Sequence record: PZ452584.1
Direction: 5' to 3' (one strand)
DNA length: 64,000 nt
Origin: a phage
Shown: piece by piece, positions 22,427 through 60,460 of the stretch
How positions within the stretch are numbered: position 1 is the first letter of the stretch
Layout: each line of letters opens with the position of its first letter
The notes under the pieces: model-generated
Databases searched by the model: none
What the model was told of the DNA's origin: nothing
Seen by the model: only the letters and a program-made list of their open reading frames with translations
Position numbers and translations under genes: made by a program

Positions 22427-22448
22427 AAGGACTCCCGAAGGAGTCCTT
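22427..22448 (-). terminator. intrinsic terminator after soc
   Basis: AAGGACUCC-UUCG-GGAGUCCUU followed by UUUUCAUUUU on the minus strand; approximate. Confidence 0.65.
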
Positions 22449-22730: not shown

Positions 22731-22738
22731 TATTTATA
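22731..22738 (-). promoter_or_regulatory. late promoter TATAAATA upstream of soc
   Basis: Exact T4 late consensus TATAAATA on minus strand about 30 nt upstream of soc ATG; approximate. Confidence 0.7.
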
Positions 22739-27412: not shown

Positions 27413-27757
27413 TTAAAAGAATTTAAACTTTTTCTTTGACCTTTTATTAAATGCATCTTGTAGTTGCATTGTAATACATTTTTCTACATGAGGAGCTAAC
27501 TCAGCTTTTCTTTCTTGGTCAAGAACAGCAAAGTCCATTACAACCTTTCCATTAACCCAATCTAATTTTGTCACATACACAATGTGTGTAGAACCATCTT
27601 CTAGTTTAATGACAATCTCCTGGATAACATTTTCCATAGCGGATTTAATTATCTTAAGAGACTCATTAAAAAGACGTTCTTTTCTTTCTTCTTCCCCCTC
27701 CGAAGAGGGGGATTCATCGATAATTTCTAGATCTAAATCTAAATCATCTTTATTCAT
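27413..27757 (-). CDS. 40: gp40-like protein (head vertex assembly)
   Basis: ORF track trimmed to internal ATG (M7), giving 114 aa; position between uvsX and 41. Confidence 0.65.
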   Translation of the reverse strand: MNKDDLDLDLEIIDESPSSEGEEERKERLFNESLKIIKSAMENVIQEIVIKLEDGSTHIVYVTKLDWVNGKVVMDFAVLDQERKAELAPHVEKCITMQLQDAFNKRSKKKFKFF

Positions 27758-38140: not shown

Positions 38141-39823
38141 TTAAACCATTACAGTAAATCGACCAACTTTCTTCATTTGAAGATGCTGACCATATTCTTG
38201 CGGGTCATGGTCTTTATGCGAAATTATAAAAACATTAGTGTTTTTCATTGAATTTATAATATTAGCTACACCTTTAATACCTTCGGCATCAAATGACCCG
38301 TCAAACACTTCATCAAGAATTAATGTACTAATACTAACACCAGATACGATAGAAGCAATATCACGCCAAGTAAATAAAAGAGCAATATCAATTCGTGCCT
38401 TTTCACCTTCACTAAATGAAGCATAACTAAAATCTTCACGACCACGGGATTTAATTGTCTCATTAAATTCTTCATCTAATGTAAACACATAATCCGCTTC
38501 CATTATTTTAAGATAATGGTTAATCTGCTTATTAAATAATGGAATGTACTTTTTAATAATAGCACCTTTAATACCAGAATCTTTGAGCATATCAGTCAAA
38601 ATTCCTCGGTGGTATTTTTCCATTACTAAATTAGTTTTTGTCTTAACAATTTTATCAAGTTCTTCTTGAAGCAGTGCTATTTCATCAGCATGGTCAATAA
38701 ACTCAGAAGATGCTTTTTCTATAGCTGCTTTAACTTTTTTAGCTTTATCTACCGTCGTGATTAGAGATTGCTTTTTATTGCGAATATCATTTGCCAACGA
38801 CTGCTGGGTTTTAATATTATCTCGGTATTCATCAACAAGAACTTTTAAATTATCACGATGTGTTGAAAGCTGTTCAAACGAATGCGTACATTCAGAAACT
38901 TTATCTTTAATTTTAGAAACAACTTTATCACCGGAACTTAATTGTGACAGACAGGTTGGACATAATCCGCCTTCGTGATACATATTAATGACTTTATTAT
39001 ACGAGTCAATTTTTGATTTAATTAAAACTGCTTCTTGACCGATTTTATTAAATGCATCAGTCGGGTCTTCATCCAAAACAATATTAACTAATCTTTCATT
39101 AGCTTCTTCTATTTCCGATTTTAGCGTTCTAGCTTCTTTTGCCAAATCATCATACATATTTTGCAGACGAGTAAGATTGTCACCCGTTAATTTTTTCTGG
39201 CGTTCAACGTTATCATTATATATTTTAATTTGTTGGATAATACTATCTTTTTTAACATCAAGCACTTGGTTTTGTGAATTTAATTCACGTATTAGTGCTT
39301 TATTAAGCTTATCCATTTCAGCTAATGTTCCTACCTCAAGCAGGTCTTCCACAAGCTTTCTTCGTGCAGGGGTCGACAAACCCATGAAAGGGGTATACCC
39401 TGCTGTACCAAGGACAACAATCTGCTTGAAACTGGCATATGACATTCCGATAAGCTGTTCAAATTCTGCTTGGAAATCTTTACTGCTGGCAGATTCATTA
39501 AGACGTGTACCGTTAACGGTGATTTCGAAAACGTTTGGTTTTTGTCCTCTTTTGATATAGTACTTTTTCTCATCATATTCCATCCACAGTTCAACTAAAA
39601 GTTCTTTCTTATTTGTGCTGTTTATTAATTGACCTTTCTTTACATCACGAAATGGCTTGCCAAAAAGCCCAAATGTGATGGCTTCTAACATAGTAGACTT
39701 ACCACCGCCATTTCGTCCAGTAATAAGAGTTTTTTGAACCTTATCTAATTGAATGTCAACTCCATTTTGACCAACTGACATTATATTTTTATATTTTACT
39801 CTATTAAGTTTAAATGATTTCAT
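38141..39823 (-). CDS. 46: recombination endonuclease subunit gp46 (Rad50/SbcC-like ATPase)
   Basis: 560 aa, same length as T4 gp46; Walker A GRNGGGKST. Confidence 0.95.
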   Translation of the reverse strand: MKSFKLNRVKYKNIMSVGQNGVDIQLDKVQKTLITGRNGGGKSTMLEAITFGLFGKPFRDVKKGQLINSTNKKELLVELWMEYDEKKYYIKRGQKPNVFEITVNGTRLNESASSKDFQAEFEQLIGMSYASFKQIVVLGTAGYTPFMGLSTPARRKLVEDLLEVGTLAEMDKLNKALIRELNSQNQVLDVKKDSIIQQIKIYNDNVERQKKLTGDNLTRLQNMYDDLAKEARTLKSEIEEANERLVNIVLDEDPTDAFNKIGQEAVLIKSKIDSYNKVINMYHEGGLCPTCLSQLSSGDKVVSKIKDKVSECTHSFEQLSTHRDNLKVLVDEYRDNIKTQQSLANDIRNKKQSLITTVDKAKKVKAAIEKASSEFIDHADEIALLQEELDKIVKTKTNLVMEKYHRGILTDMLKDSGIKGAIIKKYIPLFNKQINHYLKIMEADYVFTLDEEFNETIKSRGREDFSYASFSEGEKARIDIALLFTWRDIASIVSGVSISTLILDEVFDGSFDAEGIKGVANIINSMKNTNVFIISHKDHDPQEYGQHLQMKKVGRFTVMV

Positions 39824-39838
39824 TTTGTATCCAATTGT

Positions 39839-40693
39839 TCACAATGAAGAAAATTCTTTAACTAAAGCCTGTAATGAAGCCTCTATTGGATATCCATTCT
39901 TAACTAACATTTTCCTAAACATCACATGTTTAGGACGATTATATGATATCCACAATTCATACAATTTATCTTTATTATCCCAATGATAGCCTTTTCGTCG
40001 AGATGCTATATGAGCTTTTCTAATCTCCGGATTTTTCCAACTAGCAGCTACTGAATTTGATATAGCTATTTTATATTCAGGTTTTGATAAAGCAGCACGA
40101 ACAGCCTTTTGGTGTTTAATTTTATTTTCTTCGTTATTAAACCATTCCCTTGAAGCCATTGAAATTTTTTGTTTTGTTTTAAAATTATTTAATCTTTCTT
40201 TGTTATCTTTCCTATTTTTTGCTACTGAAAAATATTTTAATGCCCTTTCTCTAGCAGCATTTCTATTTTGCGGATTTGAATAATATTGTTGAAGCCTTTT
40301 TGATATTGTGTCACTTACATCTTGTTTTATAAAACTATATTCAGCAGCTATTAAATCAACTTCGGCTAAAGATAAATTTTTATATGTTTTTCCTGACATC
40401 ATTCTATTTAAAGCATTTAGCATTTTTCCATTTTTACCTTTTGCTAATAAGAAATGTGCTTTAAAATGATTAAAATGACTTAAATTAACTAAATTCCATG
40501 TAGATTTTAAATATTCAGGAAATATTGATTTAGGAAGCACGTGATGTGCTTCCGTTTTACCTGGAGTTTTAACAGTTGAATTCATAGAAATAAAATTAAT
40601 GTAAGACTTGGCGTCTTCTTCACTCAACGCTAATTTTTCAACTAATTCCTTTATTAAAAATTCATCATTAATGTCAAGTTTAAAATTCTTCAC
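39839..40693 (-). CDS. putative HNH homing endonuclease (Mob-like) 284 aa
   Basis: HH...N...H pattern (EAHHVLPKSIFPEY...NLVNLSHFNHFKAH) plus repeated basic DNA-binding modules; paralog of the ORF at 48376-49215; inserted between 46 and 47. Confidence 0.7.
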   Translation of the reverse strand: MKNFKLDINDEFLIKELVEKLALSEEDAKSYINFISMNSTVKTPGKTEAHHVLPKSIFPEYLKSTWNLVNLSHFNHFKAHFLLAKGKNGKMLNALNRMMSGKTYKNLSLAEVDLIAAEYSFIKQDVSDTISKRLQQYYSNPQNRNAARERALKYFSVAKNRKDNKERLNNFKTKQKISMASREWFNNEENKIKHQKAVRAALSKPEYKIAISNSVAASWKNPEIRKAHIASRRKGYHWDNKDKLYELWISYNRPKHVMFRKMLVKNGYPIEASLQALVKEFSSL

Positions 40694-40905
40694 AAAAGAT
40701 TCCTTTTAATGTATCTTTTAGACCATTCTATCATATCATCATAATCTAAAAAGTATTCATCAAATTCAGCCATGCAAACAACGCCTTGTGCTGCTTTTGA
40801 TGTGATATAAATTATTCCAACATATCTAGAATCTTCTTCGGTATAATCAATGTTTGCTATGAATTCATCATTGATGTCAAATGTCGAAAACTTCACAGTA
40901 TGCAT
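40690..40905 (-). CDS. hypothetical protein about 71 aa
   Basis: ORF track trimmed to internal ATG (M17) to reduce overlap with upstream ORF; start uncertain. Confidence 0.4.
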   Translation of the reverse strand: MHTVKFSTFDINDEFIANIDYTEEDSRYVGIIYITSKAAQGVVCMAEFDEYFLDYDDMIEWSKRYIKRNLL

Positions 40906-41140
40906 CCTTAATACAAGATACAGCCATATCTCGTAATGATTTAGGTGTGTCATTATCTAAAATGTTGAAGTTAAAAGATACAGCCCAGTCAGTGCAGACC
41001 GTAACCTTTTTAATACAATTATCTTCAACCTCTAGCGGTTCAAACCAATATTCAATAATTTCTTTATGCCCAATATCATCTTTTACTTCGCATTCAAAAT
41101 GCTGACTCATCATAACATTTTTAAATTCATCAAAAGTCAT
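40877..41140 (-). CDS. hypothetical protein 87 aa
   Basis: ORF track; ATG overlaps gene 47 stop (ATGA). Confidence 0.45.
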   Translation of the reverse strand: MTFDEFKNVMMSQHFECEVKDDIGHKEIIEYWFEPLEVEDNCIKKVTVCTDWAVSFNFNILDNDTPKSLRDMAVSCIKDAYCEVFDI

Positions 41141-42156
41141 TGTGTTGCCTCTACATATAACTGATTTGCATATTGAATAAGTGCTTCACGGTCAGAATCA
41201 GTGATGTCTGGAATTGCATTAATGTATTCTTCCATCAACGTCTGAAGAGATTGAACTTCAACTTCTTCACTGTCATCTGACTCGACAGAGTTATCAATCT
41301 TTGACACAACTCGTAATGAATGCACAACTTTTTCTAGTTCAGATTCGAACTTCGTCAGATTTTTGTCTACTTCAGTTACTATAACACGTACTGATAGATT
41401 TGTAAAATCTTTATAGTCAATTTTTCCTTTAAATGGATAATGAATTCTACGATGCCAGGTAGTATTGTTTGGAATAAATTCCATTCGTTCTGTTTCTGTA
41501 TCAAACATCCAGAACCCGCGAGGGTCATTCTCGTCACCTGCAGTTAGTGTCCATGGTGTCCCAATATATCTGACGTTAGCAGCCTCAGAGATAGTATGGA
41601 AGTGACCAGACCACACCTCTTTATAAGTCTTAAGGAAATCAGGTTCAAGACCATGAGATTTCATTCCTTTATAAAAATAAAATCCATTCAGTTCCCAGTG
41701 ACCAACACAAAAAGAAGCAGAAGAAGTTTTTATGTGCTCGAGAATTTCACCAGTATTTTCTTCACACATCCAAGGAATTAAATCAATTAAACATCCGTCA
41801 AAATCTACTGTAGTAGGCTTATCATATACTTTAACATTAGGATATTTAGCCAAAAGCTCAGTAGAGGCATTTGGATGCATTACATTTTTGTAGTGGAGAT
41901 CGTGATTTCCTACAATAGTATGTAATGTGATTCCAGCGTCATCAAGCATTTGAACTATTTCACGGGCAAACTCCATAGTTTTATGTGTGATTGCTTTTCG
42001 CACATCAAAAATATCACCATATTGAATCCATACAGTAATTCCATTTTTCTTAGAATATTCTATCGCTTGCTTAATTCCATCAATTTGAATACCGCGAATC
42101 CACTCATCATCAGCTTTAACGCCTAAATGCCAATCACCCGAGTTTAGTATTTTCAT
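41137..42156 (-). CDS. 47: recombination exonuclease gp47 (Mre11/SbcD-like phosphoesterase)
   Basis: 339 aa, same length as T4 gp47; metallophosphatase motifs DWHLG, GDIFD, GNHD. Confidence 0.95.
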   Translation of the reverse strand: MKILNSGDWHLGVKADDEWIRGIQIDGIKQAIEYSKKNGITVWIQYGDIFDVRKAITHKTMEFAREIVQMLDDAGITLHTIVGNHDLHYKNVMHPNASTELLAKYPNVKVYDKPTTVDFDGCLIDLIPWMCEENTGEILEHIKTSSASFCVGHWELNGFYFYKGMKSHGLEPDFLKTYKEVWSGHFHTISEAANVRYIGTPWTLTAGDENDPRGFWMFDTETERMEFIPNNTTWHRRIHYPFKGKIDYKDFTNLSVRVIVTEVDKNLTKFESELEKVVHSLRVVSKIDNSVESDDSEEVEVQSLQTLMEEYINAIPDITDSDREALIQYANQLYVEATQ

Positions 42157-42766
42157 GGTGTCTTTTCCATCCTAATTTAGCTGCTTTTGAAACTAGTTCT
42201 TTAATTTTTCCTTTTGTCCATTCAGGACCAGGAGGTTCATGACATAACATTTGCTTAACTCCGTTATTATACCATTTTTTACCTTTATTATGTGATGAAG
42301 CTTTAAATTTATTTGACCTTCCTTTTACATAACCTTCTGGAATATAAGGCAAAAAGGCAGATTTTCCTGTTAATGGATCATGTGAATGTATATTTCCTTT
42401 ACAATTATGAGAACCATATAATGGATGATTTTGTCCTTTATTATCTCTTCCAAATGAACCTTTTGGAGCAGCATATGACATATTAAAGAATAATGGATTT
42501 TTAACTGCATCATGCAATCGTTGATAATATAACTCGCATTTAATAGCTTCTTCACGCGTATCAAATTCAGCTAAAATGCATGAATCAAATAAGTGAGGAT
42601 TATCTGAAAGCTCTTTATTATAAATTTTCTTATACTTTTTAGATAAAACTGAACCATGATATCCAGCTAAATGCCTATCTAAAGACGTAGATCCAATATA
42701 AAAAGGAGGAAGTTTATCTCCACTATATATATTGTTAAATAAGTTATATATTTTTTCATATATCAA
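42134..42766 (-). CDS. GIY-YIG-like homing endonuclease (Seg-like), possibly degenerate
   Basis: N-terminal NIY-x8-YIG with downstream R and E, then N.P.YG linker motif typical of free-standing phage endonucleases; no in-frame ATG before the catalytic motif (TTG start listed). Confidence 0.5.
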   Translation of the reverse strand: MIYEKIYNLFNNIYSGDKLPPFYIGSTSLDRHLAGYHGSVLSKKYKKIYNKELSDNPHLFDSCILAEFDTREEAIKCELYYQRLHDAVKNPLFFNMSYAAPKGSFGRDNKGQNHPLYGSHNCKGNIHSHDPLTGKSAFLPYIPEGYVKGRSNKFKASSHNKGKKWYNNGVKQMLCHEPPGPEWTKGKIKELVSKAAKLGWKRHHENTKLG

Positions 42767-42896: not shown

Positions 42897-42935
42897 TATA
42901 TCAAACTCCGTATAAAGCTAAAGGGCCGAAGCCCT

Positions 42936-44138
42936 TTATTTTGTAATAATGTCAAACTGTTCTTTAAAGCAGAAGCTTGAATCTTGATGCTGATACAAAA
43001 ATTCATAAGCTTTTTCACGTTCACGGTCATAAAGAGCTCGGTCAGATGACAGTTCTTTAATACGTTCAAATGTTGATTCCATGTCATTTTCATCAAACCA
43101 AACGATACCGCTATCATGTGAAATTAACGGAGTATTATCAACACGGAATTTTAAATTTTCGCCAGTAGATTTCCAAAATACCGGAATTGTTCCACATGCA
43201 CCAAGCTCGAGATGAGTATATTCTAAAGAACGTTGTAGATATTTTTTATCCAACTTACTCAACTGATAACCAAAACCGGATTTACTCATACGTTCAAGCA
43301 TTTCGCTATTTACATAACGGTCAAGAATTTGCGTTGGTAAATTAGGAGCAATTTTAATTTGGTCTACTTGATGAAGACGATAATACTCGTATGGAATTCC
43401 TTTTTCTTTAATAGGAATGAACGCTGGAGAACGTTCCAGACCTTCCATAATAGTACTTAGTCCTGCAGGTTTAAGATGTTTTTCGTGAAAATCAAACATC
43501 TGATAAAAACCTTTCCATGTAGTCGTACGACCAATCCAACGGTTGATATTCATGTTAATTTCAGAAACATCTTTCCAGTAGGTTGATCGAACCTTCGCAA
43601 TATCCATAGGAGGCTGAAAGTTGTATACGGTCGGTGCTTCTTCAATGTCATCAAACAGAGAAACTGTTTCAGGATACCATTCTTTCATCAGAACTTTATT
43701 AAAATCGCCATTATCAGAATGACTAAAAATAACATCAGCTCGACGAACAGTTTCTTCTAATCCCAAATTTCGACGCAAAGAAAGAGAAGAATGGTCATGC
43801 TGATAAACTACAACACGAACCGAAGGTTTAATGTTATCAATAATTTTTTTATAGTTATTAATAGTGTCTTCTTCAACTGAAGTAGCAGGAACTGAATTGA
43901 TAATTAGAATATCACAATCATTTACCAGCTTAAGTGTTTTATCGTATTCTTTTGCCAATAAAACCGGAATTGAAAATGATTTATAATCATGTGCACAGTT
44001 ACGAGTAAATGATTTATCTTTAGCATAAACCAAAGTTACTTCATGACCATTTTTAATAAACCAATCACGTTGCTCAAGAGAAAATTTAGTTACACCACAA
44101 CCTTCAAGACCTCGAGCCATAAAAATACATACTTTCAT
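42936..44138 (-). CDS. agt: alpha-glucosyltransferase
   Basis: 400 aa, same length as T4 alpha-gt; N-terminus recognised. Confidence 0.9.
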   Translation of the reverse strand: MKVCIFMARGLEGCGVTKFSLEQRDWFIKNGHEVTLVYAKDKSFTRNCAHDYKSFSIPVLLAKEYDKTLKLVNDCDILIINSVPATSVEEDTINNYKKIIDNIKPSVRVVVYQHDHSSLSLRRNLGLEETVRRADVIFSHSDNGDFNKVLMKEWYPETVSLFDDIEEAPTVYNFQPPMDIAKVRSTYWKDVSEINMNINRWIGRTTTWKGFYQMFDFHEKHLKPAGLSTIMEGLERSPAFIPIKEKGIPYEYYRLHQVDQIKIAPNLPTQILDRYVNSEMLERMSKSGFGYQLSKLDKKYLQRSLEYTHLELGACGTIPVFWKSTGENLKFRVDNTPLISHDSGIVWFDENDMESTFERIKELSSDRALYDREREKAYEFLYQHQDSSFCFKEQFDIITK

Positions 44139-44204
44139 TTAATATCCTCTTTGTTTTGGTTTATTTTACCAAAAATTTATAAAGCAATATAGGAGCCGAA
44201 GCTC

Positions 44205-44396
44205 CTATCCGCATAATACACCATACAAAGGCTCATTAGAGCTTCTAAATTTTATGCGCTTATATGTTATAGTTCCTTCTGCTTTAGCTTTATCATGAGA
44301 CTCTTTAAAGCGTCTCATCATTTCCTCTTTAGAGGAACGAATTTTATTATAATCTATTTCAGAAGTCTGGTGTTCATCTTTCACAGTTGCCACCAT
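44205..44396 (-). CDS. hypothetical protein 63 aa
   Basis: ORF track; ATG start. Confidence 0.45.
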   Translation of the reverse strand: MVATVKDEHQTSEIDYNKIRSSKEEMMRRFKESHDKAKAEGTITYKRIKFRSSNEPLYGVLCG

Positions 44397-44871: not shown

Positions 44872-45090
44872 TTATTTCTCTAATATAAAATAAAAATCAT
44901 CATCTGTTAAATGATACCGATAGTTTAATTCTACACCATTAGATTTAAAAGCGGTATCATACGGATTTTCTGGATCAATATCAATGTCAAGAGCTAAAAC
45001 TTCCCTGAGATACATTTTAAGTAAATAGGGAATAGCTTCAACTTCAGGTATTTCTTCCAAGAATCCGGAGAGGTTAATCGTTAGCCTCAT
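44872..45090 (-). CDS. hypothetical protein 72 aa
   Basis: ORF track; immediately downstream of gene 55. Confidence 0.5.
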
Positions 45091-45631
45091 ATAAAAAATC
45101 CAAACTAGGAGAATCGTCTACAACACTTTTCTTTTCAGCCCCCGGTGTTCTATAGGTTGATTCTTCGTAATGCGTCATTTTATCGTAGATGTCTTGAATA
45201 AAAGTTTCATCTACTAACGCAACCATATCGTCGTCACGGCTGTCATAGACATTGTGAACGAAGTAACTATATTTCTTTGCAACTTCCTTACGTTCTTTTT
45301 TAATACGTTGGACGAATGCATTAAAACAAGCTTGAGTTATATACGCATGTGGGTTTTTATATTTCGTTTCATCAAAATTATGAAGCCCCTTAATAGAAGC
45401 TTCTATACCATCTGCAATCATTTCTTGTTTCCAAGACTGGGTGTATCCTGAAAAGTTGAAACGTTTAGATAAGCCTTCTGCAATAAGCATAATGGCTAAT
45501 CCAATAGTATCATTCTGACGAACTACTTTATTTGGGTCTTTATTATTTGCTAATTCTGTTTTCCAATCAATAATAGCTTGTAAAAGCTCTTTATTGTTTA
45601 CGTAATTATATTTAGGCTTAGTTTCTGACAT
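45074..45631 (-). CDS. 55: late sigma factor gp55
   Basis: ORF track trimmed to internal ATG (M3, [10 protein letters not shown]...), 185 aa as T4 gp55; AAGAGGTGAAA RBS. Confidence 0.9.
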
Positions 45632-45713
45632 TTTCACCTCTTAGCTCAATTCATAGATCTATTATATCATAATATTTGAAGATCTATCTTAAAGCACAGA
45701 GGATGAATCAATT

Positions 45714-47915: not shown

Positions 47916-48386
47916 TTAATCATGTTTCCACACCCCATCGGTATTTGACCAAAGTCGCTGATTATCTGATCCTCGCCACAGCTTTTTGGTCGGAAGATTT
48001 TTCTCATACTTCCCATCAATAATAACATCAACATATTTAAGCATTTCTAGTTGTTTAATATCTTCAAACTTATATCCTGTCCACAACCAAATGCTTTTAT
48101 TGGGATAAAGATTTTTTACTGTTTGAACAATGCAATGAATAACATCTCGATTGTCAGGATAAAGAGGGTCACCTCCGGTTATAGTTAATCCTTCTATATA
48201 ATCATTATTCAAACATTCAATTAATTGTTCTAGTGTTTCACCAGTGAATGGAATACCATTTCTAGCATTCCATGTTGATTTATTATAACACCCTTCGCAT
48301 TTATGCAAACAACCTGTAACGAAAAGAACTGTCCTGCATCCAGGACCATTAACAAAGCAGCACGGGTATATTCTGTCATAATTCAT
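47916..48386 (-). CDS. nrdG: NrdG, anaerobic ribonucleotide reductase activase (radical SAM)
   Basis: 156 aa, same length as T4 NrdG; Cys cluster C..GC......GC.KCEGC. Confidence 0.9.
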   Translation of the reverse strand: MNYDRIYPCCFVNGPGCRTVLFVTGCLHKCEGCYNKSTWNARNGIPFTGETLEQLIECLNNDYIEGLTITGGDPLYPDNRDVIHCIVQTVKNLYPNKSIWLWTGYKFEDIKQLEMLKYVDVIIDGKYEKNLPTKKLWRGSDNQRLWSNTDGVWKHD

Positions 48387-49215
48387 TTATATATTTCCAA
48401 TTATAGCCTTCAACACTTTTACGTTCGCCATTTAAACATTTTAAAATATTTCCTTTGCTAGAAATATTAAAATATTTTGCTGCGTCTGGTATATAATTAA
48501 ATGTTTTTAAAAGAACACCATCTTTATATGCGCCAAATAAATTAAGAGTATATTTTTCTCGAAGACGCTGATGTTTCCTTTTCATAACCTCAGGATTTGC
48601 ATACGCCAACTTCAATGAATTTCTGTGTTTTTCTTTTACTTCAGGTTTTTGCATTGCTAACTTAGTTAGCCTGGAAATTTTATTTCTAACTTCGTCAGTT
48701 TTCATTGCATTTGACAAATTTAATAAAGTTTTATTTCTAACTTCAGGTTTTTGCATTGCTAACTTAGTTAGTTCTCTATGTCTTTTTCTAAAATCGTCAT
48801 CCTTCCATATATTTTTCGATAATTTTGACATAGAGCGGTGAAATAATTCCTTTTCACTGGAATACAATTTAAAAATTTCATCCAATTCATCCGCATTAAA
48901 TCTATCGGTATTCGAGTTTATCATTCTATGAAAGGCATAACACATTTTACTATTGCTTGTTTTAGCTAAATAGTAATGAGCTAACGCATGGTCATAATAT
49001 GACAAATTAACAATATTCCATTTATCTGTTTTATATTCAGGAAATATAGATTTGGGAAGCACGTGATGTGCTTCCGTTTTTCCTTTTATTTTAGGATTAT
49101 TATAATTTTTTGTTATCAAATCAACATATGACAATAGTAAATCATTATTTTCTTCAAATATTAAAGCTAATTTATCATTCACAAAATCGCAAGGATAAAA
49201 TCTATCATAATTCAT
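48376..49215 (-). CDS. putative HNH homing endonuclease (MobD-like) 279 aa
   Basis: KTEAHHVLPKSIFPEY...NIVNLSYYDHALAH HNH-like motif plus repeated KLAMQKPEV modules; first 9-10 residues mirror the nrdG N-terminus; sits between nrdD and nrdG. Confidence 0.75.
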   Translation of the reverse strand: MNYDRFYPCDFVNDKLALIFEENNDLLLSYVDLITKNYNNPKIKGKTEAHHVLPKSIFPEYKTDKWNIVNLSYYDHALAHYYLAKTSNSKMCYAFHRMINSNTDRFNADELDEIFKLYSSEKELFHRSMSKLSKNIWKDDDFRKRHRELTKLAMQKPEVRNKTLLNLSNAMKTDEVRNKISRLTKLAMQKPEVKEKHRNSLKLAYANPEVMKRKHQRLREKYTLNLFGAYKDGVLLKTFNYIPDAAKYFNISSKGNILKCLNGERKSVEGYNWKYINEL

Positions 49216-51029
49216 TGGTGTTTAACCCTATGCATGATTTCTTTATTTTTACCGAGATTAAATCCGCGTTCGTTCGGGTTTCCAAGATATCCGCATGTTC
49301 TTCTTATTGTATTCATCTTTTTAGGATCAGTTTCTCCACAAATAGAACAAACAAATCCGTTTTCAGTAGGAGTCATTTCATGGGTACTTCCACATGTAAA
49401 ACATTTATCTACTGGCATATTAACACCAAAATAATCTAAATGTTGTGCAGCATAATCCCATACGGCCTCAAGGCCTTTTAGGTTATTTTTCATATCAGGA
49501 AGTTCAACATAAGAAATGTGACCACCTGTCGCAATGAAATGATATGGTGCTTCACGAGAAATTTTTTCAAACGGAGTAATATTTTCTTCTACTGAAACGT
49601 GGAAACTGTTAGTGTACCATCCTTTATCAGTAACATCCTTTACACTTCCATATTTTTCGGTATCGAGTTTACAGAAGCGATAACAAAGGTTTTCAGCAGG
49701 AGTAGAATACAAACTAAAAGCAAATCCGGTTCTTTCAGTCCACTGTTTAAGATGGGCATTCATTTTAGTTAAAATTTCTTGTCCAATATCACGACCGGCA
49801 AGAATATTCAATTCGTGAATACCAATGTATCCTAGAGACACTGAACTTCTACCGTTTTTAAATAACTCAATTATGTCGTCATCAGGTTTAAGACGAACCC
49901 CGAATGCACCTTCTTGGTAAAGAATAGGAGCAACAGTAGCTTTAACTCCTTTTAAGGAACTAATTCTACACATCAAGGCTTCAAAACATAAATCCATTCG
50001 TTCATTGAACAATTCGATAAATTTCTGTTCATTGAACTGTGTTCCAATATAAGAATCTAACGCAATACGAGGAAGATTCAGTGTTACAACACCGAGATTA
50101 TTACGTCCATCAAGAATTTCATTGCCAGTCGAATCTTTCCATACGCTCAAGAAACTACGACAACCCATTGGAGAAACAGGAATAGATGAGCCGGTGATAG
50201 CTTTATTGTTCTTAGCTGAAATAATATCAGGATACATTCTTTTGCTTGCGCACTCTAGAGCAAGCTGTTTAATATCATAGTTCGGATCGTCTTTATAAAG
50301 ATTAACACCTTCTTCAACGAACATAACAAGCTTAGGGAAAATAGGAGTTATCCCATCACGACCGAGACCTTTAATACGATTTTTCAGAATTGCTTTCTGA
50401 ATCATTCGTTCAGTCCAGTCAGTTCCTGTACCAAATGTAATTGTTACAAAAGGTGTTTGTCCGTTTGAACTAAAGAGAGTATTTACTTCATATTCATAAG
50501 CTTGGAATGCATCGTATACGTCTTTTTCTGTTTTAGATTGGGCATAATTCAGTGCATCGGCGATTTGCCATTTTTCTGCGTCCTCGATATGTTTTGCATA
50601 GGTGCGTTTAACATAAGGAGAAAGTACTTTATCTACATTCGCAAAAGTCGTTCCGCCGTATTGGTGAGAAGCAACCTGTGCGGTAATTTGTGCCATAATT
50701 GCAGTAGCAACGCCAATTGATTTAGGAGTTTCAATCTGCGCATTACCAAGCTTAAATCCGTTCTCAAGCATTCCTTTTAAATCTACTAAACAGCAATTAG
50801 TAAATGGAAGAGCAGGGGAATAATCAATATCATGAAAATGAATAATTCCGCTTTCATGCGCTTTCATAATAAAAGACGGGACCATATTTTTGGCAATGTG
50901 TTTAGACACAATACCAGCCATAAGGTCCCGTTGAGTTGGAAAAACACGAGAATCTTTGTTAGCATTCTCGTTTAAAAGGTCTTTATTAGTTTTATGAATC
51001 AATCCTTCAATTTCTTTTTCAATTGTCAT
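49212..51029 (-). CDS. nrdD: NrdD, anaerobic ribonucleotide reductase (glycyl radical enzyme)
   Basis: 605 aa uninterrupted; C-terminal glycyl radical motif RRTCGYLG; same length as spliced T4 NrdD. Confidence 0.97.
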   Translation of the reverse strand: MTIEKEIEGLIHKTNKDLLNENANKDSRVFPTQRDLMAGIVSKHIAKNMVPSFIMKAHESGIIHFHDIDYSPALPFTNCCLVDLKGMLENGFKLGNAQIETPKSIGVATAIMAQITAQVASHQYGGTTFANVDKVLSPYVKRTYAKHIEDAEKWQIADALNYAQSKTEKDVYDAFQAYEYEVNTLFSSNGQTPFVTITFGTGTDWTERMIQKAILKNRIKGLGRDGITPIFPKLVMFVEEGVNLYKDDPNYDIKQLALECASKRMYPDIISAKNNKAITGSSIPVSPMGCRSFLSVWKDSTGNEILDGRNNLGVVTLNLPRIALDSYIGTQFNEQKFIELFNERMDLCFEALMCRISSLKGVKATVAPILYQEGAFGVRLKPDDDIIELFKNGRSSVSLGYIGIHELNILAGRDIGQEILTKMNAHLKQWTERTGFAFSLYSTPAENLCYRFCKLDTEKYGSVKDVTDKGWYTNSFHVSVEENITPFEKISREAPYHFIATGGHISYVELPDMKNNLKGLEAVWDYAAQHLDYFGVNMPVDKCFTCGSTHEMTPTENGFVCSICGETDPKKMNTIRRTCGYLGNPNERGFNLGKNKEIMHRVKHQ

Positions 51030-60411: not shown

Positions 60412-60440
60412 AACTTTGTGAAAAATTTTTGAAATAAAAA

Positions 60441-60458
60441 GGGAGCCCGAAGGCTCCC
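60441..60458 (-). terminator. intrinsic terminator after the nucleotidyltransferase gene
   Basis: GGGAGCC-UUCG-GGCUCCC followed by UUUUUAUUUC on the minus strand; approximate. Confidence 0.65.
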
Positions 60459-60460
60459 TA

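Follow-up and report, generated by a model that had tools for sequence, protein, structure and literature searches.

The window, the whole 64,000-nucleotide stretch of phage DNA analysed here, contains two genes for Mob-family proteins, which we refer to as mob46 and mobNrdG (Table 1). The first is an insertion between 46.1 and gene 46 that leaves both neighbours intact, flanked on one side by gp46 (38141-39823) and on the other by the 46.1/DUF5487 ORF (40690-40953), beyond which lie 46.2 and then gp47 (41137-42156). A sequence-only reading of this DNA had described a 284-residue ORF between gp46 and gp47, and that ORF is indeed present. The second gene occupies the mobC locus of T4 exactly, but as a different allele; T4 MobC itself is of the HHIIPRSMGG type and 210 amino acids long.

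Table 1. Positions of the two endonuclease genes, their captured and rebuilt host sequences, and the shared motif and palindrome
Feature	Position	Strand	Basis
Rebuilt start of gene 46 behind mob46: 15-nt spacer, then ATG AAA TCA TTT AAA CTT	39806..39838	-	T4 alignment
mob46, Mob-family HNH homing endonuclease gene, 284 aa, GTG start	39839..40693	-	ORF, PHROGs, motif
51 nt encoding GKTEAHHVLPKSIFPEY in mob46 (codons 45-61)	40511..40561	-	
Palindrome copy 1: 8-bp stem (GGAAGCAC / GTGCTTCC), 5-nt loop	40533..40553	.	
First 6 codons of mob46 (GTGAAGAATTTTAAACTT, MKNFKL)	40676..40693	-	T4 alignment and T4 gene 46 start translation
Recoded 5' end of nrdG behind mobNrdG	48346..48386	-	alignment
mobNrdG, second Mob-family HNH homing endonuclease gene, 279 aa, between nrdD and nrdG	48376..49215	-	
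51 nt encoding GKTEAHHVLPKSIFPEY in mobNrdG	49033..49083	-	
Palindrome copy 2, identical to copy 1	49055..49075	.	
First 41 nt of mobNrdG, equal to the nrdG 5' end of mob-less T2 (MNYDRFYPCDFVN)	49175..49215	-	T2 alignment

The two proteins are paralogs, as had been proposed, with 36% identity over 233 amino acids in BLASTP (E=4e-30). Both match phrog_655, annotated as 'homing endonuclease' (E=8e-45 for mob46 and 7e-37 for mobNrdG), and phrog_12434, annotated as 'HNH endonuclease' (E=4e-15 and 7e-15). Five residues, H50, H51, N67, H76 and H80, are invariant across 16 aligned family members, including T4 MobA and RB43 'mobE', and together with the PHROGs matches they bear out the earlier assignment of both genes to the HNH endonucleases. 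A profile search of the PDB with the family alignment gave five matches, all to HNH domains and all weak (E=0.016-0.48), among them Cas8f-HNH, a group II intron maturase and McrA, which aligned over HH...N...H. Pfam and NCBIfam returned no HNH match for either protein, so PHROGs, the motif and the weak PDB profile match carry the family assignment. Elsewhere in the family Pfam recognises NUMOD3, NUMOD1, I-HmuI NUMOD-like and HNH domains, with HNH (PF01844) matching one of the 16 members (E=3.4e-4). The large protein search returned six clusters and one extra informative homolog (P0006 / L028), and an AlphaFold2 model of mob46 built from a six-sequence alignment was of low confidence (mean pLDDT 50.6, pTM 0.35, residues 40-58 below 50).

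The carboxy-terminal regions differ between the two proteins. That of mobNrdG gives a weak NUMOD1 / I-HmuI-like match below the Pfam cut-off (E=2.4e-4, 21.1 vs 27 bits), whereas for that of mob46 no Pfam match was detected, its only counterparts being in the gene-46-associated Mobs of other genera. In Mosigvirus pEK20 and Gelderlandvirus LG358, too, a Mob gene is found immediately upstream of gene 46, and across genera these proteins are 42% identical over their full length, with the carboxy-terminal domain in common. Judged by sequence, mob46 and mobNrdG are two homing endonuclease genes of the Mob (HNH) family, both free-standing, in a Tequatrovirus (T-even phage). Public records, those of T2, T6 and PST among many, already list them as homing endonucleases, and in this respect they are ordinary and largely known. 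Mob-type endonuclease genes that stand free in T-even genomes are textbook knowledge.

Insertion sites and distribution

Both genes are free-standing, as the sequence-only reading had it, each lying between conserved genes with the host genes intact on either side. mob46 is carried at 99-100% identity by 71 records in all, T2 and T6 among them, where it is annotated 'homing endonuclease'; T4 lacks it, and there 46 and 46.1 abut. Full-length mobNrdG is found in 32 records, of which 22 are phages of E. coli, Shigella, Yersinia and Salmonella (96.9-100% identity) and 10 are Klebsiella phages (about 84-85% identity). The Yersinia phage PST record names this gene mobC, and T2 is without it. Set against some 477 records in which 80% or more of the 14-kb region is covered, both genes are patchy in their presence, a distribution that fits the intron-less homing suggested for this lineage. 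Both copies occur together in only 2 of 113 records, so interplay between them cannot be under selection.

Each endonuclease gene has captured the start and first codons of the host gene downstream of it, gene 46 in one case and nrdG in the other, and behind each insert that host gene has been rebuilt with a recoded 5' end. Over its first 6 codons mob46 is identical to gene 46 of T4, down to the GTGA in which the start overlaps the stop of 46.1, and in the rebuilt gene 46 codons 2-3 are recoded relative to T4 from AAG AAT to AAA TCA (N3S). The start of mobNrdG overlaps the nrdD stop codon as ATGA, its own stop codon falls inside the recoded nrdG 5' end, and that recoded end differs from the captured copy at 9 of 41 nucleotides (F6I, D10C).

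Recoding of this kind in gene 46 and nrdG fits a protected target, the activity itself being predicted. No promoter is apparent for either endonuclease gene, and each start overlaps the stop of the upstream gene. By analogy with T4 MobE, each enzyme would presumably nick or cut the insert-less allele in a mixed infection, after which recombinational repair would bring in the endonuclease gene along with the DNA beside it. The capture and recoding at both inserts point to the probable location of the target sites and of the immunity polymorphisms. A literature search returned no paper characterising mob46 or mobNrdG; both are apparently uncharacterised, and a cross of T2 or T6 with T4 would thus be a ready test of homing at the gene 46 junction.

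The shared motif and its palindrome

At residues 45-61 both proteins carry GKTEAHHVLPKSIFPEY, the common motif that had been noted, and the invariant residues of the HNH motif begin within it, with H50 and H51. The DNA encoding it is identical between the two genes at 48 of 51 nucleotides and 14 of 17 codons, and nucleotide alignment of the genes with BLASTN gave 46 of 48 identical positions; outside the motif the median identity in 17-codon windows of the codon alignment is 47%. The palindrome reported as near-identical proved to be an identical 21-mer, GGAAGCACGTGATGTGCTTCC, which occurs exactly twice in the window and gave zero matches in shuffles. Both copies begin 141 nt into their own ORF, and since they lie inside one homologous stretch they are not independent events.

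As RNA the palindrome forms a hairpin with a perfect 8-bp stem and a 5-nt loop (-12.2 kcal/mol; z = -5.4 for the 21-mer alone), and the minimum-energy folds of the two 101-nt contexts contain it whichever strand is folded (z = -3.6 and -5.6 for the two sense-strand contexts). Random synonymous codons for the motif peptide yield an 8-bp stem with p = 6e-4. Because the inverted-repeat listing was dominated by overlapping, A/T-rich palindromes it was replaced by a dedicated hairpin scan, in which six loci had a perfect hairpin of eight or more stem base pairs, five or more of them G-C, against 0.17 expected per 64-kb shuffle. The other four of these loci have the CGAA/UUCG-tetraloop form.

The sequence-only reading had suggested that the palindrome could be an RNA hairpin or a recombination site, and this suggestion did not hold up among homologs that keep the protein motif, from which the palindrome is absent. 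Degenerate-pattern scans for TEAHHVLPK gave one locus in IMG/VR, three in metagenomes and two in GTDB genomes. Only L001 and L018 proved to be real relatives; L017, L019, L025 and L026 were set aside as unrelated or as encoding HHVF. L001 encodes TEAHHVLPK as ACA GAA GCT CAT CAT GTC CTT, L018 encodes it as ACT GAA GCA CAC CAC GTA TTA, and L028 has ERHHVLPKSIFPEY with GTA CTC; despite HHVLP, none of these three independent homologs has the palindrome. It is likewise missing from SHGT, which has TEAHHILP, and the Mosigvirus and Gelderlandvirus positional orthologs of mob46 are without the hairpin. The equivalent 21-mers in SHGT, L001, L018, L028, pEK20, LG358 and VR7 fold at -2.4 kcal/mol or weaker, compared with -12.2 to -12.6 kcal/mol in the three carrier lineages. 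Every one of the six alleles of the two Tequatrovirus lineages has perfect stems, and so do the Klebsiella-phage orthologs. Identity outside the motif is also low, at about 18-42% for amino acids and 37-60% for nucleotides, and each of these two results, absence from motif-keeping homologs and low outside identity, had been named beforehand as counting against the proposal.

We also asked how far the shared codons of the motif exceed those of the genes around it. Codon identity is 14 of 17 in the motif and 48 of 72 at identical residues elsewhere, a difference that is not significant (p = 0.065-0.093, the chance of 14 or more under a model whose excess of shared codons was fitted to the sequence beyond the motif). 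Most motif codons are common to distant family pairs as well, for example AAA, GAA, TTT, CCT and TAT. Codon identity as proof of nucleotide-level selection was rejected after this comparison with the rest of the gene. Against coincidence, 14 of 17 matches would be improbable under independent draws (p = 0.006), the shared codons include rare ones (ACG and GTG, at 9% and 8% of their families), and the probability that all five stem codons are shared, given the sharing elsewhere in the genes, is 0.005-0.024.

Origin and possible roles of the palindrome

We consider it probable that these are ordinary Mob HNH genes in which the palindrome is a by-product of descent, neither a feature of the family nor a demonstrated signal. 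The shared 51 nt encode the most conserved part of the family, which would be the strand-turn with the two invariant HNH histidines, and most of the nucleotide identity would follow from common descent, a strong A/T bias in codon choice and the identity of all 17 amino acids. To form the palindrome the synonymous set ACG, GAA, GCA, GTG and CTT is needed, together with a Val in place of the usual Ile of the family; this codon set would have arisen once and then been inherited by the carrier lineages. The palindrome is real, and an inherited codon coincidence is its most likely explanation, rather than a signal. With the motif excluded, however, the catalytic domain of mob46 is closer to pEK20 (51% identity) than to mobNrdG (37%), so simple vertical descent of the motif is not the sole reading.

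It is conceivable, if unlikely, that a stretch of about 50 nt, comprising the motif and its palindrome, was copied between the two Mob genes in the Tequatrovirus pool after their catalytic domains had diverged, probably from mobNrdG to mob46, the palindrome again being without function. The affinity of the mob46 catalytic domain to pEK20 would be expected from such a conversion, and site patterns in a quartet of mob46, pEK20, mobNrdG and VR7 point the same way, the motif grouping mob46 with mobNrdG (8:0:1) and the carboxy-terminal two thirds grouping it with pEK20 (30:9:6). The rest of the amino-terminal domain settles on neither grouping (8:5:2), and the contrast with the motif is therefore not significant. 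Both genes also have a GTG-encoded Val where the family consensus is Ile, and over the 51 nt mob46 differs from the mobNrdG of E. coli phages at three positions while the Klebsiella mobNrdG ortholog differs at six, although 3 against 6-7 differences are too few for dating. Two further observations tell against copying: the motif does not significantly exceed the genes as a whole in shared codons, and the flanks of the motif are 55-58% identical in nucleotides, which leaves almost no homology to initiate exchange.

That the stem-loop is a selected cis element, acting either as an mRNA brake on the endonuclease (through pausing, processing or stability) or as an antisense intrinsic terminator, we regard as improbable. 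Among the six distinct alleles (113 records) we counted about 11 synonymous changes in the motif from the alignments; none falls at the five synonymous stem positions, whereas both loop positions and 8 of the 12 non-stem motif codons vary (p = 0.008-0.022). The invariant stems and varying loop are a weak hint that the hairpin may have a function within the carrier clade. On the only independent branch, however, between the E. coli and Klebsiella mobNrdG genes, the probability of no stem change is 0.11-0.18, and since each stem site free to change synonymously is paired with a fixed one, the stems leave no room for compensatory change. The hairpin depends on rare codons, is stable, lies at an equal offset in the two genes and has precedents in the internal terminator of T4 mobE and in segF (PMC2790892, PMC2988022), but it is missing in the positional orthologs and in all other homologs.

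The form of the hairpin also bears on what it could do. On the + (antisense) strand GTTTTACC follows copy 1 and GTTTTTCC follows copy 2, and there the two palindromes are the top two terminator-like sites of a 14-kb scan. On the sense strand the hairpins are followed by UAAAUCAAUAUUU and CAAAUCUAUAUUU, GUUUU(A/U)CC being confined to the antisense strand, and the G+C stem with a U-tract that marks an intrinsic terminator is absent. Nor does the hairpin cover the Shine-Dalgarno sequence or start codon, as it would in sequestering the ribosome-binding site, from which it is distant, beginning 141 nt inside the ORF. No late promoter was found on the + strand; the sole TATAAATA of the 64 kb is at 22731 and on the opposite (-) strand, which ruled out an antisense RNA from a late promoter ending at the hairpin, and sigma-70-like matches are at chance level (72 vs 65.8). 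A programmed frameshift signal was rejected as well, there being no X XXY YYZ heptamer and no spacer ahead of the stem, and Rfam gave no family match at E up to 1 over 38-52 kb. If the hairpin were functional, it would be the second regulatory RNA structure in a Mob coding sequence after the mobE terminator, and one embedded in the codons of the catalytic motif themselves. A combination of the two preceding ideas, in which a selected RNA element was moved between non-sister Mob genes by a conversion patch of about 50 nt, would explain why stems built from rare codons and an Ile-to-Val change stay invariant as the loop and nearby synonymous sites vary, and we find it very doubtful.

SegB-triggered segmental amplification via microhomologies was recently reported in T6 (PMC13096335), and the two genes share a 26-nt run of perfect identity, in direct orientation and 8,522 bp apart. 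Even so, it is hardly credible that this run or the palindrome is a recombination site or endonuclease target, serving inter-gene exchange or 8.5-kb segmental amplification, given that just 2 of 113 records have both copies, that exchange between direct repeats would remove genes 47, a-gt, 55 (the late sigma factor, 45074-45637) and nrdG, that neither insertion junction has a third palindrome copy or half-site nearby, and that an 8-bp arm is, in our judgement, too short for cruciform extrusion. Under T4 headful packaging the reciprocal product, a duplication of 8.5 kb, would be longer than the terminal redundancy, which also counts against a DNA-level site.

Comparison with known systems

RNA structures that restrain the expression of homing endonucleases are known from T-even phages, and the hairpin in mob46 and mobNrdG would resemble them if it acted in this way. 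The structures of I-TevI, I-TevII, I-TevIII, segB and Aeh1 mobE sequester the ribosome-binding site (PMC2988022). Hairpins of the I-TevI/segB type include that site or the start codon, which the mob46/mobNrdG hairpin does not. Another parallel is the internal terminator of T4 mobE, which has a 9-bp stem, a 4-nt loop and poly(U), lies 27 nt after the AUG (PMC2790892) and ends about 30% of transcripts; such a hairpin is also present in segF (PMC2790892, PMC2988022). In both cases a G+C-rich hairpin sits in the 5' third of a Mob coding region. The mobE hairpin is found in every phage with that gene lineage, and the mob46/mobNrdG hairpin in all six Tequatrovirus alleles and the Klebsiella-phage orthologs but in neither the Mosigvirus nor the Gelderlandvirus ortholog. 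Unlike the mobE terminator, the mob46/mobNrdG hairpin lies 141 nt from the start and within catalytic-motif codons, and it has a 5-nt loop, lacks a sense U-tract and is terminator-like only in the antisense direction.

In domain order mobNrdG is similar to I-HmuI, with an amino-terminal HNH region and, at the carboxy-terminus, a NUMOD1 / I-HmuI-like helix-turn-helix that scores below the Pfam cut-off. I-HmuI differs in being intron-encoded, and mob46 in having a carboxy-terminal domain without a detectable Pfam match.

The nearest relatives are the T4 Mob proteins. MobA-MobE of T4 are free-standing HNH homing endonucleases, of which only MobE has been characterised (PMC2790892, PMC2988022). 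Both genes described here encode the same catalytic motif, E-x-HH-[IV]-[LI]-P ... N ... H-x3-H, and can be aligned with T4 MobA and RB43 'mobE'. Like the T4 genes they stand free between conserved genes, are oriented as their neighbours with a start that overlaps the upstream stop, and are sporadic among T-even genomes. In contrast, the proteins are just 25-30% or so identical to the T4 Mobs, and mob46 is without a T4 counterpart. By analogy with MobE, cleavage and homing are predicted for mob46 and mobNrdG as well.

Two Mob-family genes in a T-even early region

The window represents the early region of a Tequatrovirus, a T-even phage. Its 53 long ORFs are all on the minus strand, and the gene order (gp45, rpbA, 45.2, gp46, 46.1, 46.2, gp47, a-gt, gp55, nrdH, nrdG, nrdD, gp49) is that of T4. 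No record of the phage collection fully covers 38-52 kb (best: 94% coverage, 97.4% identity), which makes the window a mosaic built from known T-even modules. Two of its genes, mob46 and mobNrdG, are HNH homing endonuclease genes of the Mob family, both free-standing. The sequence-only reading had taken them for free-standing homing endonucleases, and their proteins are indeed paralogous (36% identity across 233 residues, E=4e-30). Neither protein has an HNH match in Pfam or NCBIfam; in PHROGs both hit phrog_655 'homing endonuclease' (E=8e-45 for mob46, 7e-37 for mobNrdG) and phrog_12434 'HNH endonuclease', and other family members match Pfam NUMOD3, NUMOD1, I-HmuI NUMOD-like and HNH. When 14 relatives found in other phages (T4 MobA and RB43 'mobE' among them) are aligned with the two proteins, H50, H51, P54, N67, H76 and H80 are invariant, which is an HNH pattern, and the alignment profile matched only HNH domains in the PDB, weakly (E from 0.016). 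The predicted structure (pLDDT 50.6) was too low in quality for use. Endonuclease activity and homing would follow from the family, with MobE as the basis (PMC2790892).

Features in and around the two endonuclease genes
Feature	Position	Strand	Remark
gp46	38141-39823
Rebuilt gene 46 start	39806-39838		3' of mob46
Second hairpin in mob46	39913-39935		RPKHVMFRK codons
mob46	39839-40693	-	284 aa, between gp46 and DUF5487/46.1 ORF
Palindromic 21-mer, mob46 copy	40533-40553
mob46 5' end	40676-40693
DUF5487/46.1 ORF	40690-40953
Third putative homing endonuclease gene	42134-42766	-	210 aa, GIY-YIG (seg-like), between gp47 and a-gt
nrdG	47916-48386
Recoded nrdG 5' end	48346-48386		3' of mobNrdG
mobNrdG	48376-49215	-	279 aa, between nrdD and nrdG
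42-nt direct repeats	48628-48669, 48730-48771		in mobNrdG
Palindromic 21-mer, mobNrdG copy	49055-49075
mobNrdG first 41 nt	49175-49215
nrdD	49212-51029	-	605 aa
Late-promoter core	22731-22738	-
CGAA-loop (+ strand) hairpins	2310-2331, 22427-22448, 27693-27712, 42919-42938, 44189-44208, 60440-60459		G+C-rich, perfect

Both genes are ordinary members of the Mob family with existing annotations. mob46 is 99-100% identical elsewhere (T2, T6; 71 records), in many annotated 'homing endonuclease', and is lacking in T4, where 46 and 46.1 abut. mobNrdG occupies the T4 mobC position as a different allele, T4 MobC having 210 aa and being of the HHIIPRSMGG type. It is full-length in 22 phage records (E. 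coli, Shigella, Yersinia, Salmonella; named mobC in Yersinia phage PST) and present in 10 Klebsiella phages at ~85% nucleotide identity. Since ~477 records have at least 80% of this 14-kb region covered, both genes are patchily distributed, and only 2 of 113 records carry the two together. The mob46-type C-terminal domain recurs (42% identity) in Mob genes directly 5' of gene 46 in pEK20 (Mosigvirus) and LG358 (Gelderlandvirus); this suggests that the lineage has been tied to the 5' junction of gene 46 for a long time, in three genera. The 3' ends of these Mob genes (L006 1126-1986 and L007 1141-1983, respectively) overlap the gene 46 start.

Relatives in other T4-like phages (L003, L004, L005, L008-L015) fall at a few recurrent sites: between genes 14 and 15 (Klebsiella, RB43 and ZZ1 phages), inside or adjoining gene 43 (POP12, AB-Navy), between 39 and 60 (S16; T4 mobA) and in the 49 region (VR7). 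The third putative endonuclease matches phrog_10820 (E=5e-91), with Pfam GIY-YIG under the cut-off (E=7.7e-4); its position holds 47.1 in T4 and merely a 177-nt gap in T6. nrdD is one unbroken ORF here, whereas T4 nrdD is annotated as split by a group I intron with I-TevII.

Architecture of the inserts

Both inserts have the same architecture. The 5' end of mob46, GTGAAGAATTTTAAACTT, reproduces codons 1-6 of T4 gene 46, and as there its start codon overlaps the stop codon of 46.1 (GTGA); downstream, the gene 46 start is rebuilt as a 15-nt spacer followed by ATG AAA TCA (N3S). Likewise, the first 41 nt of mobNrdG are identical to the nrdG 5' end in mob-less T2, and the nrdG 5' end beyond it is recoded (9/41 nt changed; F6I, D10C). 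T4 mobC shows a shorter version of this arrangement. These junctions suggest that each element entered the host gene a few codons from its beginning and captured its translation start, and that a variant, possibly cleavage-resistant, host 5' end travels with the element. The captured and recoded ends of gene 46 and nrdG are candidate target-site and immunity polymorphisms.

The direct repeats in mobNrdG are 90% identical, lie 102 nt apart and code LTKLAMQKPEV. P0004, a 242-aa variant in public assemblies, lacks one repeat unit, apparently through a deletion between the two copies.

The shared motif and its palindrome

Residues 45-61 read GKTEAHHVLPKSIFPEY in both proteins. Their DNA is identical at 48/51 nt (46/48 by BLASTN), against a median of 47% in 17-codon windows elsewhere along the codon alignment, and the 21-mer GGAAGCACGTGATGTGCTTCC occurs exactly twice in the window and has no match in shuffled sequences. 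The near-identical palindromic stretch described in the sequence-only reading is thus present in both genes. Under independent draws from window codon usage, the wrong null where genes are homologous, 14/17 identical codons gave p = 0.006 and three or fewer nucleotide differences p = 0.004. Outside the motif the codon is also identical at 48 of 72 identical residues (expected: 37 from genome usage, 44 from the genes' own usage). With that excess sharing fitted (0.12-0.27), P(>=14/17) was 0.065-0.093, and a Fisher test gave p = 0.23. Most motif codons are common to distant family members too, because AAA, GAA, TTT, CCT, TAT and CAT dominate. Seventeen identical residues in related genes with an A/T bias explain most of the near-identity.

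In RNA form the 21-mer gives a hairpin (8-bp stem, 5-nt loop) that is part of the MFE structure in both sequence contexts. It requires ACG, GAA, GCA, GTG and CTT, with Val instead of the family-consensus Ile, and would arise from random synonymous choices with p = 6e-4. Perfect hairpins whose stems have 8 or more bp and 5 or more G-C pairs occupy 6 loci (0.17 expected per shuffled window), 4 of them in CGAA/UUCG-tetraloop form. The strongest hairpins of the window are those of the CGAA/UUCG-loop set; on the minus strand, the transcribed one, their loop is a UUCG tetraloop, as in terminators or RNA stabilisers of the T4 type. The second perfect hairpin in mob46 (10-bp stem, 3-nt loop, -9.9 kcal/mol) is not formed by the corresponding pEK20 and LG358 sequences.

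Codons of homologs at the palindrome
Homolog	Peptide	Codons
L001	TEAHHVLPK	ACA GAA GCT CAT CAT GTC CTT
L018	TEAHHVLPK	ACT GAA GCA CAC CAC GTA TTA
L028	ERHHVLPKSIFPEY	GTA CTC
SHGT	TEAHHILP	ACA GAA GCC ... ATA CTT

The palindrome is absent from these four homologs, from the positional orthologs pEK20 and LG358, and from VR7, the equivalent 21-mers folding at -2.4 kcal/mol or weaker. Conservation in homologs, proposed as a check, clearly fails outside the immediate clade, where L001 and L018 keep the peptide. The palindrome is real and most likely an inherited codon configuration.

In quartet site patterns mob46 pairs with mobNrdG over the motif (8:0:1) and with pEK20 over the C-terminal two thirds (30:9:6), and the rest of the N-terminal domain favours no grouping clearly (8:5:2). 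Behind the shared motif there may be a short conversion patch or domain shuffling, though the patterns prove neither.

Candidate functions of the hairpin

The 113 records reduce to six distinct alleles: window-type and T6-type mob46, three mobNrdG variants from E. coli phages, and the Klebsiella orthologs. All six have the same stems, while the loop reads AUCAC, ACCAC or ACCAU and 8 of 12 non-stem motif codons vary, a pattern that would fit a regulatory hairpin limited to the carrier clade. Counting from the alignments, roughly 11 synonymous events struck the motif, and the five synonymous stem sites took none (p = 0.022 under uniform weighting, 0.008 degeneracy-weighted). Sharing of all five stem codons on the deep branch has P = 0.005-0.024, that branch being the original observation itself. 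On the sole independent branch, which separates E. coli-phage from Klebsiella-phage mobNrdG and has 29% of its synonymous codons changed, P(no stem change) is 0.11-0.18. Compensatory stem change is impossible because the pairing partner of every synonymous stem site is fixed. We consider a regulatory hairpin of this kind improbable. Of the suggested RNA hairpin, the stable fold (-12.2 kcal/mol) stands; the codon configuration is the likelier account of it, given its absence from homologs outside the clade.

On the antisense side GTTTTACC / GTTTTTCC come next, and the site was the top-ranked terminator-like site of the scan. No late promoter was found on the plus strand, sigma-70-like matches were no more than chance level, and no Rfam family matched. 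The T4 late-promoter core TATAAATA is present only once in 64 kb, where shuffles predict 11, and is strongly avoided outside real late promoters. A recombination site, the other suggested role, is implausible: the two copies lie 8,522 bp apart in direct orientation, exchange between them would therefore remove genes 47, a-gt, 55 and nrdG, and almost no genome has both.

Hairpins are known from related genes, T4 mobE having an internal hairpin terminator 27 nt after the AUG (PMC2790892) and other endonuclease genes having RBS-sequestering hairpins (PMC2988022). Unlike the mobE terminator, the hairpin here begins at nt 141 and its sense strand is without a U-tract, and in contrast to the sequestering hairpins it leaves the RBS untouched.
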